A stretch of 64,000 nt of DNA from Escherichia coli (GTDB taxonomy: Bacteria; Pseudomonadota; Gammaproteobacteria; Enterobacterales; Enterobacteriaceae), in assembly GCF_024223415.1 (NCBI RefSeq), contig NZ_CP100501.1; one strand, 5' to 3'. Made by a program: the position numbers and the translations under genes. Each line of letters starts with the position of its first letter. Within the stretch, counting starts at the first letter, position 1. The notes beneath the pieces are model-generated. The model was not told the origin of the DNA and made no database searches. It saw nothing but the letters and a program-made list of their open reading frames with translations. Below, piece by piece: positions 43,452-53,033 of this stretch.

Positions 43452-44042
43452 CTATACAGTAACAGTTTGCTGTTTCGCTCTAACTCTCAGAATTGTTTGC
43501 CGTGTGGTTCGGAATTCCCTGGCAATAGCACTTATACTTGCTCCAGACTTAATGTGTTCGAGTACCTTCTGTTTTTGTTCTTCATTTAATACCGGTGGGC
43601 GACCAAAACGTTTTCCTGCATCCCGTGCTCTTGCTATCCCTGAATAAGTTCGTTCAAGTAAAAGATCTCGTTCAAATTCAGCGACCGCTGAAATCACTTG
43701 CATTGTCATTTTTCCTGCCGGACTGGTCAGATCAACACCACCTAATGCCAGGCAATGTACCCTGATGCCAGATTCGGTCAGTTGCTCCACTGTTTTCCTG
43801 ATATCCATTGCATTACGACCGAGGCGATCCAGTTTTGTGACTATCAATACATCGCCACTTTCCAGACGATCAAGCAACCGGTTAAAACCTGGACGTTCAC
43901 TGGCTGCTACTGATCCACTAATTTGTTCTTCGATTATTCGTTGGGGTCTGACGTTAAAACCCGCGCTTTCGATTTCCCGACGTTGATTTTCGGTCGTCTG
44001 TTCCAGAGTGGAAACCCGACAATAGGCAAAAATTCGAGACAT
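43452..44042 (-). CDS. Serine recombinase (resolvase/invertase family)
   Basis: N-terminal catalytic motif [10 protein letters not shown]-terminal HTH; 196 aa. Confidence 0.85.
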
Positions 44043-47139: not shown

Positions 47140-49234
47140 ATGGACATTGAAATACGCCACTGCAATAACATCGTACGAGCACATATCACCCTCACTGCCG
47201 ATAAACTGAACATTAAGTTTGCGCCAAATGGTACTGGAAAAAGTACGCTGTCACGGGCCATAAGCTGTGCGGCGCGGGACGACATTCAGGGACTACAGGC
47301 ACTGATGCCCTTCCGGCTGCGCGGAGAAAACCCCGATAGCACCGGGCCCATTGTCATCGGTGCTGACGGGATTGGGGACGTGATGTGCTTCAACGAGGAG
47401 TACGTCAGTCAGTTTACGTTCCAACCGGACGAGCTCATCAGTGACAGCTTTAATATTCTTATCCGCAATCAAGCCCATGCGGAAAGAGAGCGTGAAATAG
47501 AAGAAATGACGCAAAAGATCCGGGCTGTTTTCACGGATCACACTGAGCTGAACTCTCTGATAGACCATCTACAGGAACTCAGTAATGCTTTCAAATCAAC
47601 CAGTTCCGGGATTTCACGTTCTTCAACCGGCATGAGAGGTCTGTCAGGCGGAAATAAAATACACCACATTCCGGCTGGTCTTGAGAACTATCAACCCTAC
47701 ATCCGCAGTGAACGCCGCGTGGAATGGATTGACTGGCAGACAAAGGGACTCGAGTTTTCGCCCCTTTCGGATGGCTGCTGTCCGTTCTGTACCGGTGATA
47801 TCACGGGAAAGGAAGCACAAATTCGCCAAGTCAGAGAGGAATACGATAAATCCACCATTAAAAATGACGGAGAGCGCCAGAGAACGCCTTCTGGCCATTA
47901 CTATGCTTCAGAACGGTCCGGAAGCCGAACATATCGAGTACCTAGTGGCGTTGAAACGCCAGACCGATACGCTGACAGAGAAACTCACTGCGCTGAGAGG
48001 CCTGAATGTTTTCAGCCTGCAGGAACAGCAGAACGTTCGGGAGGTGCTCACTGCCAGGTTGATTGACCTGCAGTTCTTCCCTGATCTGCAATCCGAACTC
48101 ATGCAGGGGATCACCGACAGACTGAACGCGGCCCTTATGGACCTGATAAACCTTGCCGGACCGCTGCAGGGAAAAATTAACCGGCACCGGGACAGCATGA
48201 TCCGGCTGATCGCACAGCACAAAACAAACATCAATAATTTCCTCACTTATGCAGGCTATAAATACAGGGTGGATATAGCCGGCGAGGGAGAGCAGAGAAA
48301 ACTCAGGCTACGACACATAGATTTTGACGGGTACGTCAGCGGCGGTAGCCAGCATCTCAGCTATGGAGAACGGAACGCCTTTGCGATTGTGTTATTCATG
48401 TATGAATGCCTGTCAAAAAACCCGGGACTGATTATCCTTGATGATCCCATATCTTCTTTTGATAAAAACAAGAAGTTTGCCATTCTTGAAATGCTGTTCA
48501 GACGTGCAAGTGGTGAATGCCTGAAGAACCGGACTGTACTTATGCTGACGCATGACGTGGAGCCTGTGATTGACACGCTGAAGTCAGTCAGAAGGTTGTT
48601 CAGTAATCAGGTGACCGCCTCCTGCCTGCGCCTGTCTGCTGGAGTCATAGAAGAATTACCTGTTAACGACGGCGATATCATGACATTCATGCAGATCTGC
48701 AAATCCATCACCGCGTCAGCAGACTGTGAGGAGATCATTAAGCTCATCTATCTTCGTCGCTACTTTGAAATCGTTGACGAACGTGGTGATGCTTATCAGC
48801 TTCTATCCAATCTATTCCATCGACGCGTCGCCCCGCTGGATTATCGCGAGCCTGCCGCTGCGGGCTCGGGCTATCCCAAAATGGCTCCTGAGAAAATTCA
48901 GCAGGCCTTGCGGGATATCCGGGAGTATGTGGACAGTTTTGATTACCCGCGACTTCAGGCTCTCGTCAGCAGCCCAGATGAAATAAAAAACCTGTACCGT
49001 CGCTGTCGTAACGGCTATGAAAAACTGCAGGTATTCCGTTTACTGGAACTGGATCAGGACCATCCGGTAATACGAAAATTCGTTAACGAAACGTACCACA
49101 TTGAAAATGAGTTCATCTGTCAACTAGATCCGTCCAGATTCGATCTCATCCCGGAGTACGTGATTATGGAATGTGACAAGTTCATCGCCCTGCCACCGGC
49201 AGCAAACCAGAGCTCGGTTGCCCGTATCGCTTGA
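47140..49234 (+). CDS. Rad50-like ABC ATPase with CxxC hook and extra C-terminal domain (RloC/PrrC-like candidate); reading frame shifts near 47860-47870
   Basis: Walker A FAPNGTGKSTL, long coiled-coil insert with CPFC, signature LSYGERN, Walker B LIILDDP, H-loop LMLTHD, then about 215 aa; N part in frame 1, C part in frame 2. Confidence 0.55.
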
Positions 49235-49333
49235 GCCACTGTTTTTGCCGCCGGAAGATAGGCTTTAGCTCCCTGATAGTCTGATCTTCGAAGATACCCT
49301 ACAGTTTAGGACCGCTTACTGTAGATATCTGTT

Positions 49334-49360
49334 AAAACAGCCCGTATACGGGCTGTTTCT
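49334..49360. terminator. Bidirectional intrinsic terminator between convergent genes
   Basis: AAAACAGCCCG-TATA-CGGGCTGTTTCTT hairpin with flanking A and T runs. Confidence 0.7.
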
Positions 49361-49395
49361 TGGTGCCCTTATCTCCTGACTTTGAAAAGAGTGTC

Positions 49396-49812
49396 TTACT
49401 TCACCCAGTCTTCCAGCACCAGGTCAGGCACTCGCTCAAATTCTCTTGTATTATTCGTTACCAGTATCGCCCCGGCGGCGATGGCGTGCCCGGCAATCGC
49501 CGTGTCGTTCGGGCCGATCGGCGTCCCGGCCAGCCGCAGTGCCACTTTAATCTTCGTGGTGGCGTCTACTGCGGCGCGATCCCAGGGCAGGATGGCATCG
49601 AGGCGGGCGCAGAATTCATCGACCAGTTGGACGTGACGTGGTGAGGCCTTTGGGCCGGTAGCCCCGAAGCGCATTTCAGAGTAGGTGATGGCCGAGACCA
49701 CTATACGGTGGCCGCGTAGCACCGCCTGCTCCAGACGCTTCAGGACGGCTTCTGGCTGTTCACGCATGATGAACGAGCAGATACAGGTATCAAGCATATA
49801 AGTCTTGTTCAC
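49396..49812 (-). CDS. vapC: PIN-domain toxin VapC
   Basis: 138 aa; N-terminal YMLDTCIC with acidic residue and PIN-like spacing; overlaps the antitoxin gene. Confidence 0.85.
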   Translation of the reverse strand: MNKTYMLDTCICSFIMREQPEAVLKRLEQAVLRGHRIVVSAITYSEMRFGATGPKASPRHVQLVDEFCARLDAILPWDRAAVDATTKIKVALRLAGTPIGPNDTAIAGHAIAAGAILVTNNTREFERVPDLVLEDWVK

Positions 49813-50039
49813 AGGTTAAATCGCCCTTCGTCGCTGACAACATCCTCGCGCTCCGCCATAAAATCTGGATCGGCTTTTTCGTACTCTAGGAATGATCCCC
49901 AGGTTGGCCGGACGGGGCGCAGGATGATGCTGTCCCCTTCCCGGACGATCTCGAGCTCGCTCACCCCCTCAAAATCCAGATCACGAGGCAGACGGATGGC
50001 GCGGTTGTTGCCATTTTTAAATATCGATACGGTTCTCAT
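49809..50039 (-). CDS. vapB: AbrB/SpoVT-type antitoxin VapB
   Basis: 76 aa; MRTVSIFKNGNNRAIRLPRD typical of VapB/MazE swapped-hairpin antitoxins. Confidence 0.85.
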   Translation of the reverse strand: MRTVSIFKNGNNRAIRLPRDLDFEGVSELEIVREGDSIILRPVRPTWGSFLEYEKADPDFMAEREDVVSDEGRFNL

Positions 50040-50049
50040 GTTCTTTCTC

Positions 50050-50180
50050 TCCCGAGCATATGGATATGTGAAACATATCCGGAATATTCAAAGCACCGGG
50101 TGTGTGCATATGTTTAGTATAGGCAGATGTGTGGCATATGTATAGCGGTAGCATATGTAGATGCCATGCATATGTTTAGC
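50050..50180. promoter_or_regulatory. Array of GCATATG(T) repeats upstream of vapBC (operator or iteron-like)
   Basis: At least five copies of the palindromic CATATG core within about 130 bp, plus inverted repeat GGATATGTGAAACATATCC. Confidence 0.5.
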
Positions 50181-50598
50181 ATATCCCTATTTCTTTCTTT
50201 TTTATCGGAGATCCGAAAAAAGGTTGTTCAGGATCTTCCTCTCCCCCCACACAACGCCACCTCCTGTAAGCACAACATGTGGTGCCGGATTCAGCTGCTG
50301 ATGACACTATATGTTGTGTCATCTCCCTGACCTGTGATGCGTCGCGCAGGGGCGGAAAACAGCGATATGATGATTTCCTCAGCGTGGTACACTTCCGGAA
50401 AGTTGTGATATTCTGGAAAGTCGGATCTGACGGAAACGGCTCTCCGGTAATTTAACGGCGTGGTTATATGGATGCTTGTTATCATGGTGATGATGATAAC
50501 GGCATGATGTTATCAGACGGCGTGACGGTAAGGGCAGTGATGATGGATGACGTTATCGCATGACCGTCCCTGCCCGGAAAAGAAAAAAGGAGTCACCC

Positions 50599-51012
50599 AT
50601 GTTTTTTATTAAGAATGAAGGTCAGGCTGTCGCCAGAACGGATTACTGGCAGTCTGTACAGGCGCAGGCCGGATATGTCTACCTCAGCTGGAATGCCGGC
50701 GCAGCCAGGCTGCTTGTCCCGGATGCGGCAAAACATTTACTCAGGGAGATGCGGGGGGCTGAGTACGTCATCATCAGTAAGGGAACGCTGCATGGCCGCG
50801 ATGCGCTGGAACTGATATTTGAAGACGGCAGCGATGCGCCGTTCGTGATCCACATGCTGAGCGAGCAGTGCGATCGCCTGCTCCCCGAAAACAACCAGGG
50901 CGGGGGTTTTGTTGTCACCGTCTGGACGCGTGGCGGTAACCAGCTCCGTTATCCGGGAAAGTACCGTGTTGTGGAAAACCTGCCCGACGTTTCCCCGTGG
51001 AGTGAACACTGA
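50599..51012 (+). CDS. Hypothetical protein, translationally coupled to the tyrosine recombinase
   Basis: ORF with stop (TGA) 1 nt before the recombinase ATG. Confidence 0.5.
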   Translation: MFFIKNEGQAVARTDYWQSVQAQAGYVYLSWNAGAARLLVPDAAKHLLREMRGAEYVIISKGTLHGRDALELIFEDGSDAPFVIHMLSEQCDRLLPENNQGGGFVVTVWTRGGNQLRYPGKYRVVENLPDVSPWSEH

Positions 51013-51013
51013 T

Positions 51014-51799
51014 ATGCAGCACCTGCCGGCACCGATCCACCATGCCCGGGATGTCGCTCAGCTTCCTGTTGCCATCGATTATCCGGCAGCGCTGGCACTC
51101 CGCCAGATGTCGATGGTTCATGATGAACTGCCAAAATACCTGCTGGCCCCTGAAGTGAGCGCCCTGCTCCATTACGTCCCGGATCTGCGCCGCAAGATGC
51201 TGCTGGCCACACTGTGGAACACCGGTGCGCGCATTAATGAAGCACTGGCGCTGACGCGGGGGGATTTTTCGCTTGCGCCCCCGTATCCGTTTGTGCAGCT
51301 GGCCACTCTGAAGCAGCGGACAGAAAAAGCCGCCAGGACGGCAGGAAGAATGCCCGCCGGTCAGCAGACTCACCGGCTGGTTCCGCTTTCCGACACCTGG
51401 TACCTCAGCCAGCTGCAGACGATGGTGGCCACACTGAAAATCCCCATGGAACGGCGTAATAAACGAACAGGCAGGACAGAGAAAGCGCGGATCTGGGAAG
51501 TGACGGACAGAACGGTCAGGACCTGGATTGGGGAGGCGGTTGCCGCCGCTGCCGCTGATGGTGTGACGTTCTCTGTCCCGGTCACGCCACATACGTTCCG
51601 CCATTCCTATGCGATGCACATGCTGTATGCCGGTATACCGCTGAAGGTCCTGCAGAGCCTGATGGGGCATAAGTCCATCAGCTCAACGGAGGTCTACACG
51701 AAGGTGTTTGCACTGGATGTCGCGGCGCGCCATCGTGTGCAGTTCGCTATGCCGGAAGCCGATGCGGTAGCGCTGATAAAACAACTTGAGAGGCGTTAA
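51014..51799 (+). CDS. Tyrosine site-specific recombinase (XerC/XerD-like; probable multimer resolution)
   Basis: Catalytic box II HTFRHSYAMHM..LMGH..EVYTKV. Confidence 0.8.
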   Translation: MQHLPAPIHHARDVAQLPVAIDYPAALALRQMSMVHDELPKYLLAPEVSALLHYVPDLRRKMLLATLWNTGARINEALALTRGDFSLAPPYPFVQLATLKQRTEKAARTAGRMPAGQQTHRLVPLSDTWYLSQLQTMVATLKIPMERRNKRTGRTEKARIWEVTDRTVRTWIGEAVAAAAADGVTFSVPVTPHTFRHSYAMHMLYAGIPLKVLQSLMGHKSISSTEVYTKVFALDVAARHRVQFAMPEADAVALIKQLERR

Positions 51800-52059: not shown

Positions 52060-52390
52060 TTCAGCATGATAGCAGCAATAAAATAGATTGCAGCTATCAT
52101 GCTGTACACATACGGCCTAGCGCTCTGCTTATGTTATGCTATCTGCAATCTTGCGGCAATCTTGCTTCATCTGTCGATGCGATTCTGAATGAGGTTTCTT
52201 TTATTGTTAACGTGACACAAGTATTCGGCTGTCAATTCCAGCACTCTGCTAAGTAGCAAGATTTAATCTTGCTACTAGATTTTTTATTGTTGCAATCTTG
52301 CTGCAAGCTGTTATCTTGTTCTGGAAGAGTTACTCTACCTAACCTCAATCTGGTTTATATTGATGTTTGCTGCAAGATAGCAGCAAGTAA
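52060..52390. promoter_or_regulatory. Centromere-like repeat array upstream of parA (GCAATCTTGC / GCAAGAT palindromic units)
   Basis: Multiple ATCTTGC..GCAAGAT units in the promoter region; similar units recur at 53410-53480. Confidence 0.55.
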
Positions 52391-52400
52391 AGGGGGCTAA

Positions 52401-53033
52401 ATGGCCTGGATAGTTGGTTTTATTTCTCAGAAAGGTGGTGTGGGCAAAAGCACTAAAGCGAGAGCGTTAGCGCGTGAAGCATCCGCCTGTGGTATCAAAA
52501 CAAAATTAGCTGATCTCGACTTGGAACAGGCAACGAGTGCTGAGTGGCATCGTAGACGTCTGTCAGCTGGTTTGTCACCGGTTGCTTCAGTTGAAGTGTT
52601 TTCAACAGCAAAGCAGGCGATAGAATCTGCCGGCGATTTTGACCTTCTGATTCTTGATGGCCCTGCTCGTGCAAGTAAAGGTACTTCAGAAATTGCTAAG
52701 GTCGCCGACCTTATCGTCCAGCCAACGGGGGCCTCCCTTGACGATCTTGTCCCGGCAATTAAAGTTTTCAACGCGTTGGTAAAAGAAGGTATACCACGTT
52801 CAAAACTGGTCTTCGCTTTAAGCCGGGTAGGTACCGAAGCGGAAGAGCTGGATGCTCGTGCATATATCAGTGAAGCAGGTTATGAAACTTTATCTGGATG
52901 CCTTTTTGAGAAGCCAGCATACAGAAAAGCGATGAATTCAGGACTCGCTGTGACAGAAACACGTTATAAAGGTTTAAACGAGAGAGCTGATGAACTTATC
53001 CAGGCACTCATCGATAAGATTGGAGAAGAGTAA
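52401..53033 (+). CDS. parA: ParA-family partition ATPase (small, type Ib)
   Basis: Deviant Walker A SQKGGVGKST; 210 aa. Confidence 0.85.
   Translation: MAWIVGFISQKGGVGKSTKARALAREASACGIKTKLADLDLEQATSAEWHRRRLSAGLSPVASVEVFSTAKQAIESAGDFDLLILDGPARASKGTSEIAKVADLIVQPTGASLDDLVPAIKVFNALVKEGIPRSKLVFALSRVGTEAEELDARAYISEAGYETLSGCLFEKPAYRKAMNSGLAVTETRYKGLNERADELIQALIDKIGEE

Follow-up and report, generated by a model that had tools for sequence, protein, structure and literature searches.

A tandem array of palindromic hexamer pairs upstream of a plasmid vagCD-type vapBC operon is probably an expanded, multi-site VapB operator

The enteric VapBC promoters characterised so far carry two operator sites, each bound by a VapB4C4 octamer, and are autoregulated through conditional cooperativity (PMC3378870, PMC3384007, PMC11796401). 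In Salmonella LT2, VapBC footprints two inverted repeats (vapO1 and vapO2), where VapC enhances binding and then induces release (PMC3378870). Shigella VapBC shifts 30-mers with GATATAC-N6-CATATCC and TATATCC-N6-CATATCC, which overlap the -10 and -35 (PMC3384007). The crystal structure of Caulobacter crescentus VapBC1 on DNA shows one VapB4C4 with two AbrB domains on two palindromic half-sites ~10 nt apart, the octamer reading adjacent major grooves from one side (PMC5389673). The ccdAB toxin-antitoxin operator of F, for its part, covers 113 bp and holds eight short palindromic sites, a multiplicity that gives avidity and a switch-like, ratio-dependent repression (PMC5389731). Here we describe a repeat array directly upstream of vapB, the antitoxin gene of a vagCD-type vapBC operon, in a 64-kb stretch of the Escherichia coli contig NZ_CP100501.1 (hereafter the window, meaning this whole stretch of 64,000 nucleotides). 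With a probability of roughly 0.8, we propose that these repeats are the expanded autoregulatory operator (vapO) of the operon.

A preliminary description of this region had placed at least five copies of a GCATATG(T) unit and a longer inverted repeat at 50050-50180. We found that exact GCATATG indeed occurs on the plus strand at 50056, 50106, 50134, 50151 and 50168 (four of the five in the form GCATATGT), and a repeat finder returned the inverted repeat as 21-nt arms at 50058-50078 and 50170-50190 (86% complementary). The coordinates were also essentially right, with an array extending from 50057 to 50185 and starting 18 nt from the vapB start codon. These five copies make up half of the 10 GCATATG matches in the window, and fall within a 119-bp span for which a shuffle-derived background of 10.33 per 64 kb gives an expectation of 0.019 (Poisson P(≥5) = 2e-11; ~1e-6 after correction for all start positions).

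What that description had missed was a period of 17 bp and a unit that is a pair of hexamers 11 bp apart. A sixth copy, GCATATC, lies at 50179, and degenerate copies (GTATAGG at 50117, GCAGATG at 50123, GTATAGC at 50140 and GTAGATG at 50157) complete a regular lattice. In the main block, CATATG-like hexamers start at 50107, 50118, 50124, 50135, 50141, 50152, 50158, 50169 and 50180, so that from 50107 on the spacings run 11, 6, 11, 6, 11, 6, 11 and 11; families spaced 17 bp were likewise returned by the repeat finder. Three proximal hexamers start at 50057, 50063 and 50074. The most fitting reading of the lattice is a series of abutting hexamer-N5-hexamer 17-mers, in which the unit is a CATATG pair, 11 bp centre to centre. 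A scan for CATATG-N5-CATATG with up to 3 mismatches recovered six in-lattice 17-mers from the window array, as opposed to 0.11 per region in shuffled sequences: five imperfect copies arranged head to tail (S1 to S5) and a sixth in the proximal part (SP) (Table 1). Of the two arms of the 21-nt inverted repeat, S5 is the distal one and the other lies in SP. Elsewhere in the window, a single isolated 17-mer was found at ≤2 mismatches, inside the recombinase gene.

We next considered the genes and promoter that the array adjoins. VapB matched Pfam MazE_antitoxin, of the AbrB/SpoVT fold (3.2e-9), and NCBIfam TA_anti_VapB (95.5 bits against a cut-off of 60), and its relatives in the PDB are the VapB chains of 6IFM, 5K8J/5L6L/5L6M and 3TND; the antitoxin has a DNA-binding domain, as expected for an operator read by VapB. 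Matches of VapC to the NCBIfam models for tRNA(fMet)-specific endonuclease VapC fell below the curated cut-offs. The two genes overlap by 4 bp, and the start codon of vapB, directly downstream of the array, ends at 50039. On both strands of 49950-50650, the only sigma-70-like match was TATACA-N17-TATACT, and it is embedded in the lattice. S3, S2 and S1 span the -35, the spacer and the -10/+1 region, respectively, and S4 and S5 lie upstream of the promoter. Transcription is predicted to start near 50109 on the minus strand, which would place SP within the 5′ untranslated region (5′ UTR), at about +30 to +52. An array immediately upstream of the antitoxin gene and overlapping its promoter is what an autoregulatory operator would look like. 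The promoter itself is conserved: TAYAYA-N17-TATAHT was present in 47 of 71 homologous loci, with an information content near 2 bits, and both promoter hexamers were retained in two loci (L056 and L059) that have lost the hexamers between them. A second, vapB-proximal promoter candidate (TTGAAT at 50091-50086) was rejected, having no acceptable -10 and a -35 that is not conserved in loci L005-L007. We found no indication of a structured RNA in the 5′ UTR, where the fold was no better than those of shuffled sequences (z = -1.09), and an Rfam search of 49300-51100 gave no match.

Table 1. Coordinates of the vapBC genes, the predicted promoter, the operator sites and the adjacent recombination module (positions in the window; mismatches are to CATATG-N5-CATATG)
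Feature	Position	Strand	Description
vapC	49396-49812	minus	vagD-type PIN-domain toxin, 138 amino acids (Pfam PIN 2.8e-15)
vapB	49809-50039	minus	vagC-type antitoxin, 76 amino acids; AbrB/MazE/SpoVT DNA-binding N-domain
SP, promoter-proximal operator	50057-50080; 17-mer 50063-50079		CATATG abutting the perfect palindrome GGATATGT-gaa-ACATATCC (50062-50080, repeat finder); 2 mismatches
S1	50107-50123		CATATG-tttag-TATAGG; 2 mismatches; covers the -10 hexamer and the predicted transcription start
-10 of PvapBC (predicted)	50121-50116	minus	TATACT; 17-nt spacer from the -35
S2	50124-50140		CAGATG-tgtgg-CATATG; 1 mismatch; in the spacer between -35 and -10
-35 of PvapBC (predicted)	50144-50139	minus	TATACA
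S3	50141-50157		TATAGC-ggtag-CATATG; 3 mismatches; overlaps the -35 hexamer
S4	50158-50174		TAGATG-ccatg-CATATG; 2 mismatches; upstream of the -35
S5	50169-50185		CATATG-tttag-CATATC; 1 mismatch; one hexamer in common with S4
rfsF of the neighbouring ResD/Rsd tyrosine recombinase	50208-50237		GAGATCCGAAA-AAAGGTTG-TTCAGGATCTT; 30-bp inverted repeat
ResD/Rsd tyrosine recombinase gene	51014-51799		

A 2.4-kb query over the locus, searched against a plasmid collection, fell into two separable modules, each of which was also found without the other. The first comprises vapBC and the array (49396 to ~50225), and the second an open reading frame (ORF) of 137 amino acids, orf137, with the tyrosine recombinase gene (~50208-51768). 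The array region was matched in 3329 plasmid records, and at least 5000 of 72,556 PLSDB records encode this VapB. In every sampled record that we inspected (pCoo, Klebsiella IncF/IncR-type and virulence plasmids, an IncK2/Z plasmid, an IncF plasmid and an Erwinia plasmid) the array adjoined vapB, and the neighbours on its far side were unrelated to one another (hypothetical genes, an AAA ATPase, cytochrome b562, a helix-turn-helix regulator, ccdAB-rsd). In the virulence plasmid of Salmonella Dublin, the array lies between vagC and the ccdAB-rsd operon, has a Tandem Repeats Finder (TRF) period of 17, and counts 7 contiguous sites and 1 proximal site. The window and pCoo show two differences in this stretch (50164 and 50186), both outside the hexamers. 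As an observation on annotation, RefSeq records a 153-residue ‘hypothetical protein’ (WP_014343465.1) on the strand opposite vapB in the Klebsiella plasmid NZ_CP023942.1 (L002:2434-2895). Its gene spans the vapB start and the entire operator array. The annotation reappears in numerous Klebsiella plasmid records and is probably spurious, with regulatory DNA called as a gene.

To reach more distant homologues, one genome per species was scanned, which yielded 76 loci encoding VapB homologues. Upstream of these genes, CATATG occurred 2.4 times per 200 nt, ~90-fold above the 0.026 of the flanks (70 distinct upstream regions), and in the same regions the distances between paired hexamers were almost only 6, 11, 17, 23, 28, 34, 40, 45, 51 and 57. 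The number of 17-mer sites per locus ranged from 0 to 10 (71 homologous loci), with at least one operator-like 17-mer in 65 and at least four in 36. The preliminary description had named absence of the repeats from homologous vapBC loci as one of the results that would count against it, and the repeats proved to be present there. Co-inheritance of the sites with the toxin-antitoxin genes, across genomic contexts and among homologues, is again as expected of an operator. SP was found in a subset of the homologous loci, at an equal distance from the ATG. When 46 distinct sequences were aligned by anchoring on the promoter only, TATACA and TATACT reached ~2 bits per column and S1 was kept as CATATACTnnnCATATG; the upstream 12-mers carried 1.10, 0.67, 0.52 and 0.33 bits per column, compared with 0.29, 0.16, 0.20 and 0.07 for the spacers.

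Contigs of 0.4-5 Mb, of which the multi-megabase ones are presumably chromosomal, likewise carry the array upstream of vapBC. Homologues from Shewanella, Oceanospirillaceae, Spongiibacter, Azoarcus and beta-proteobacterial metagenome-assembled genomes, with VapB identities of 64-76% and an N-terminal DNA-binding segment that is nearly unchanged, carry just one or two CATATG-N5/6-CATATG sites, placed over a recognisable -35/-10, which is the two-operator layout of the characterised VapBC systems. In the Shewanella homologue (L072), the -10 operator CATATACTAAGCATATG is the counterpart of S1. The best explanation is that one or two sites over the -35/-10 are the ancestral state and were multiplied in tandem in this plasmid lineage. 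The largest array (10 sites; L037:1302-1459) contains a double unit of 34 bp in 3.7 copies that are 93% identical, which indicates recent tandem duplication and shows that the array grows by this process. Known plasmids had 6-9 sites, whereas the median on contigs that are likely chromosomal (≥400 kb) was 2 (Mann-Whitney p = 1e-4), a comparison that is suggestive and that is confounded by phylogeny and by the use of contig size to assign replicon class.

Together, our results support a multi-site VapB operator, because the array is co-inherited with vapBC, overlaps the only conserved promoter, and is built from a hexamer pair that recurs at distant vapB genes. We infer the binding of VapB or VapBC to the array sites, together with its stoichiometry and regulatory outcome, as follows. 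Each CATATG hexamer would serve as a half-site for the AbrB-type domain formed by one VapB dimer, and one VapB4C4 hetero-octamer would span a hexamer pair (one 17-mer) from one face of the helix. Occupancy of S1-S3 would exclude RNA polymerase, while S4, S5 and SP would add avidity. Excess VapC would then release the complex through conditional cooperativity, by analogy with the Salmonella and Shigella VapBC systems. The role of the additional sites is most plausibly to increase avidity and to make the response sharper, as for the ccdAB operator of F.

Several points weigh against such an operator. S3 is a weak match (3 mismatches), and we found no reports of binding, footprints or transcription starts for vagCD-type systems in the searchable literature. 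Octamers of 90-100 kDa may not fit on neighbouring 17-bp sites at the same time; the rotation of ~223 degrees between one site and the next may or may not ease this crowding. Only one locus has a divergent hexamer (L078, GTACAY-N5-GTACAT), accompanied by a changed recognition loop, so that covariation between protein and site amounts to one data point. Finally, all loci with at least four sites carry the left arm of rfsF 23-25 nt from the array, and a link to recombination is therefore not dismissible on linkage alone.

The rfsF site begins 22 nt past the end of the array, outside the operator, and forms the edge of the vapBC module: homology between this module and the orf137-recombinase module breaks exactly there. 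We identify it as rfsF because R64 has an equal 30-bp inverted repeat that starts at nt 43,620, the coordinate assigned to rfsF of R64 (PMC8004404). The central 8 bp vary between plasmids, and we infer an 11-8-11 parsing. An arrangement with ‘vagCD next to rfsF’ has been described for the IncR backbone, and rfsF itself as a junction in plasmid mosaicism (PMC9412624). The array-proximal arm reads TTTTTTCGGATCT on the vapB strand, and several of the loci L001-L083 keep this half of rfsF only. No intrinsic terminator was predicted at the inverted repeat 50209-50236, which is rfsF itself.

With rfsF so close, the 17-bp repeats could be accessory (architectural) sequences of rfsF/crs for ResD/Rsd, instead of or besides being the vapBC operator, although we regard this as improbable. 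The spacing of 23-25 nt is measured from the left arm of rfsF to the most distal site and holds for any number of sites, and the arm is absent from loci with three sites or fewer. Resolution sites of the cer/psi type have one-sided accessory sequences, which the one-sided layout here resembles. The S. Dublin virulence plasmid has this same array (7 + 1 sites) beside ccdAB-rsd, and Krause and Guiney reportedly assigned, in 1991, eight incomplete 17-bp direct repeats to the crs of S. Dublin pSDL2. Against these resemblances, rfsF-resD occurs in an IncK and an F-like plasmid (L084 and L085) with no operator-like site within 1.5 kb, there is no such array left of rfsF in R64, and the homology of rfsF-resD modules to the window begins exactly at rfsF. 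Conversely, vapBC with the array occurs without a recombinase gene in the flanks that were fetched (L002-L006), and the hexamer pair lies over the promoters of rfsF-less vapBC operons, including those on multi-megabase contigs and in distant bacteria. In its position next to rfsF and near a ResD/Rsd-type gene, the array resembles the rfsF/ResD systems of F, R64 and IncR and the crs/Rsd system of Salmonella virulence plasmids, but rfsF-resD modules can lack the array, and the array can occur where there is no resD. This independent occurrence argues that the array belongs to the vapBC module, and its linkage to rfsF is accounted for by common descent of a vagCD-rfsF backbone that spread through recombination at rfsF. 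Two features that have been adjacent since the early accounts of stability regions on Salmonella virulence plasmids can now be told apart: the 17-bp repeats are assigned to vapBC, and the neighbouring 30-bp inverted repeat is rfsF, a known hotspot of plasmid mosaicism.

The preliminary description had also offered two interpretations, a multi-site operator or an iteron-like array, possibly what remains of another replicon's control region; the former is well supported and the latter is not. Under the iteron interpretation, the repeats would be iterons, or what is left of them, bound by a Rep initiator and located beside vapBC by coincidence. They are indeed plasmid-borne direct repeats in tandem, about as long as iterons, with a copy number that varies between relatives, and plasmid iterons share with them a tandem arrangement of ~17-22 bp units in variable number. 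Yet iterons are located at a replication origin with the rep gene next to them, and the array has no rep gene as its neighbour in the window or in the pCoo, Klebsiella, IncK, Erwinia and S. Dublin loci. Instead, its placement with respect to the vapB start is constant, and the conserved vapBC promoter lies inside it. The isolated match in the recombinase gene is its only second occurrence in the window at ≤2 mismatches, and its hosts include the contigs of 0.4-5 Mb as well as IncF, IncK2/Z, IncR-type, IncFIB and untyped plasmids, rather than one incompatibility type. The iterons of IncR, moreover, are 36 bp long (PMC9412624). The units of the array are palindromic hexamer pairs with a 17-bp period. 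Classical iterons, by contrast, are asymmetric repeats phased at about two helical turns. For practical purposes we consider an iteron or replicon remnant excluded. It is equally hard to credit that the array arose by chance or by slippage, as a low-complexity repeat that lacks any sequence-specific function, since, although the 34-bp double unit of L037 makes clear that tandem duplication operates, the hexamers are three- to four-fold better conserved than the spacers among the 46 distinct sequences, the differences between window and pCoo spare them, and homologues in distant taxa have a 90-fold excess of CATATG upstream.

Other features near the locus were noted in passing. The ORF of 137 amino acids (50599-51012) precedes the recombinase gene with a 1-nt gap, is kept with it in pCoo, R64 and an IncK plasmid, and had no match in Pfam or NCBIfam. 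Between rfsF and orf137, at 50270-50320 and 50477-50557, lie further repeats: an inverted repeat CACAACATGTGGTG / CACTATATGTTGTG, two copies of GTGATGATG, two copies of ATGAYGTTATC and an inverted repeat GTTATCAT/ATGATAAC. R64 and IncK plasmids keep this stretch together with the recombinase module, and these repeats may be regulatory or accessory sites of ResD. Just upstream of a ParA gene at 52401, the interval 52145-52320 contains an 11-bp repeat (GCAATCTTGCG, 1.9 copies) and a 29-bp repeat (1.9 copies), which are probably a partition operator or centromere. On the other side of vapBC, two ORFs in different frames overlap (47140-48066, 308 amino acids; 47681-49234, 517 amino acids), with a P-loop at the N-terminus. 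The pair looks like an AAA-family ATPase gene with a frameshift, and in Klebsiella pVIR1078 the region matching 47140-49234 is annotated as a single AAA ATPase gene.

The vagCD-type vapBC operon is among the commonest plasmid addiction systems in Enterobacterales and is carried by many resistance and virulence plasmids of Klebsiella, E. coli and Salmonella. Its regulation has so far been assumed to follow the two-operator paradigm of Shigella and Salmonella, whereas the sequence argues for a ccdAB-like multivalent operator in which the number of sites varies from plasmid to plasmid. Such variation should alter the tightness of repression and the toxin:antitoxin ratio at which the system switches, and possibly the efficiency of post-segregational killing. 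Multi-site toxin-antitoxin operators (ccdAB) and two-site VapBC operators are already known, the latter being well characterised, but in the literature searched we found no prior description or test of a VapBC operator tandemly multiplied to 6-10 sites. As far as we have found, a promoter built from repeat units, with a number of sites that differs between plasmids, appears to be new.

Whether the expansion from two to six-ten sites is adaptive for plasmid life, beyond providing a stronger repressor site, is a more speculative matter. One proposal, which we think rather unlikely, is that the array acts as a plasmid-borne depot. It would keep VapBC bound to DNA and VapB shielded from Lon, and loss of the plasmid would remove the depot, with faster decay of VapB and sharper release of VapC as the outcome. 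Cleavage of Shigella VapB by Lon is known to be blocked by promoter DNA (PMC11796401). If the proposal were true, the array would be a sensor of copy number or plasmid presence set within an operator. A related possibility is that the VapBC-coated array, at its distance of 22 nt from rfsF, serves as an architectural element for multimer resolution by ResD/Rsd, which, if true, would couple two plasmid stability functions.

Among the described systems that come closest to the array are the enteric operators vapO1/vapO2 of LT2 and OS1/OS2 of mvpAT on Shigella pINV, with which it shares an AbrB-type VapB, sites over the -10 and -35, and half-sites with an ATAT core. It differs from them in its extent, as the preliminary description had noted in calling it more extensive than a typical VapB operator: the enteric operators number two per promoter, their half-sites lying 13 bp apart in the Shigella oligonucleotides, whereas here six sites occupy a strict 17-bp lattice with half-sites 11 bp apart, and the array has sites upstream of the -35 and one in the 5′ UTR in addition to those over the promoter. 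The VapB of the window is, moreover, only a distant relative of Shigella VapB (phmmer E about 2e-5). The geometry of palindromic half-sites 11 bp apart fits the C. crescentus VapBC1 complex, as operator half-sites should, and the DNA-contacting residues Asn13 and Arg21 of that complex (base and phosphate contacts) align with Asn11 and Arg19 of the window VapB. The C. crescentus system differs in having a single operator over the -10/+1, other half-site sequences and no tandem multiplication. With ccdAB of F, the locus has in common a plasmid toxin-antitoxin promoter with an unusually long, multi-site operator. CcdA, however, is a ribbon-helix-helix protein, and open chains of alternating CcdA2 and CcdB2 spiral around the DNA, whereas VapBC forms closed octamers with two DNA-binding heads, so that the way in which multiple sites cooperate may differ between the two systems.

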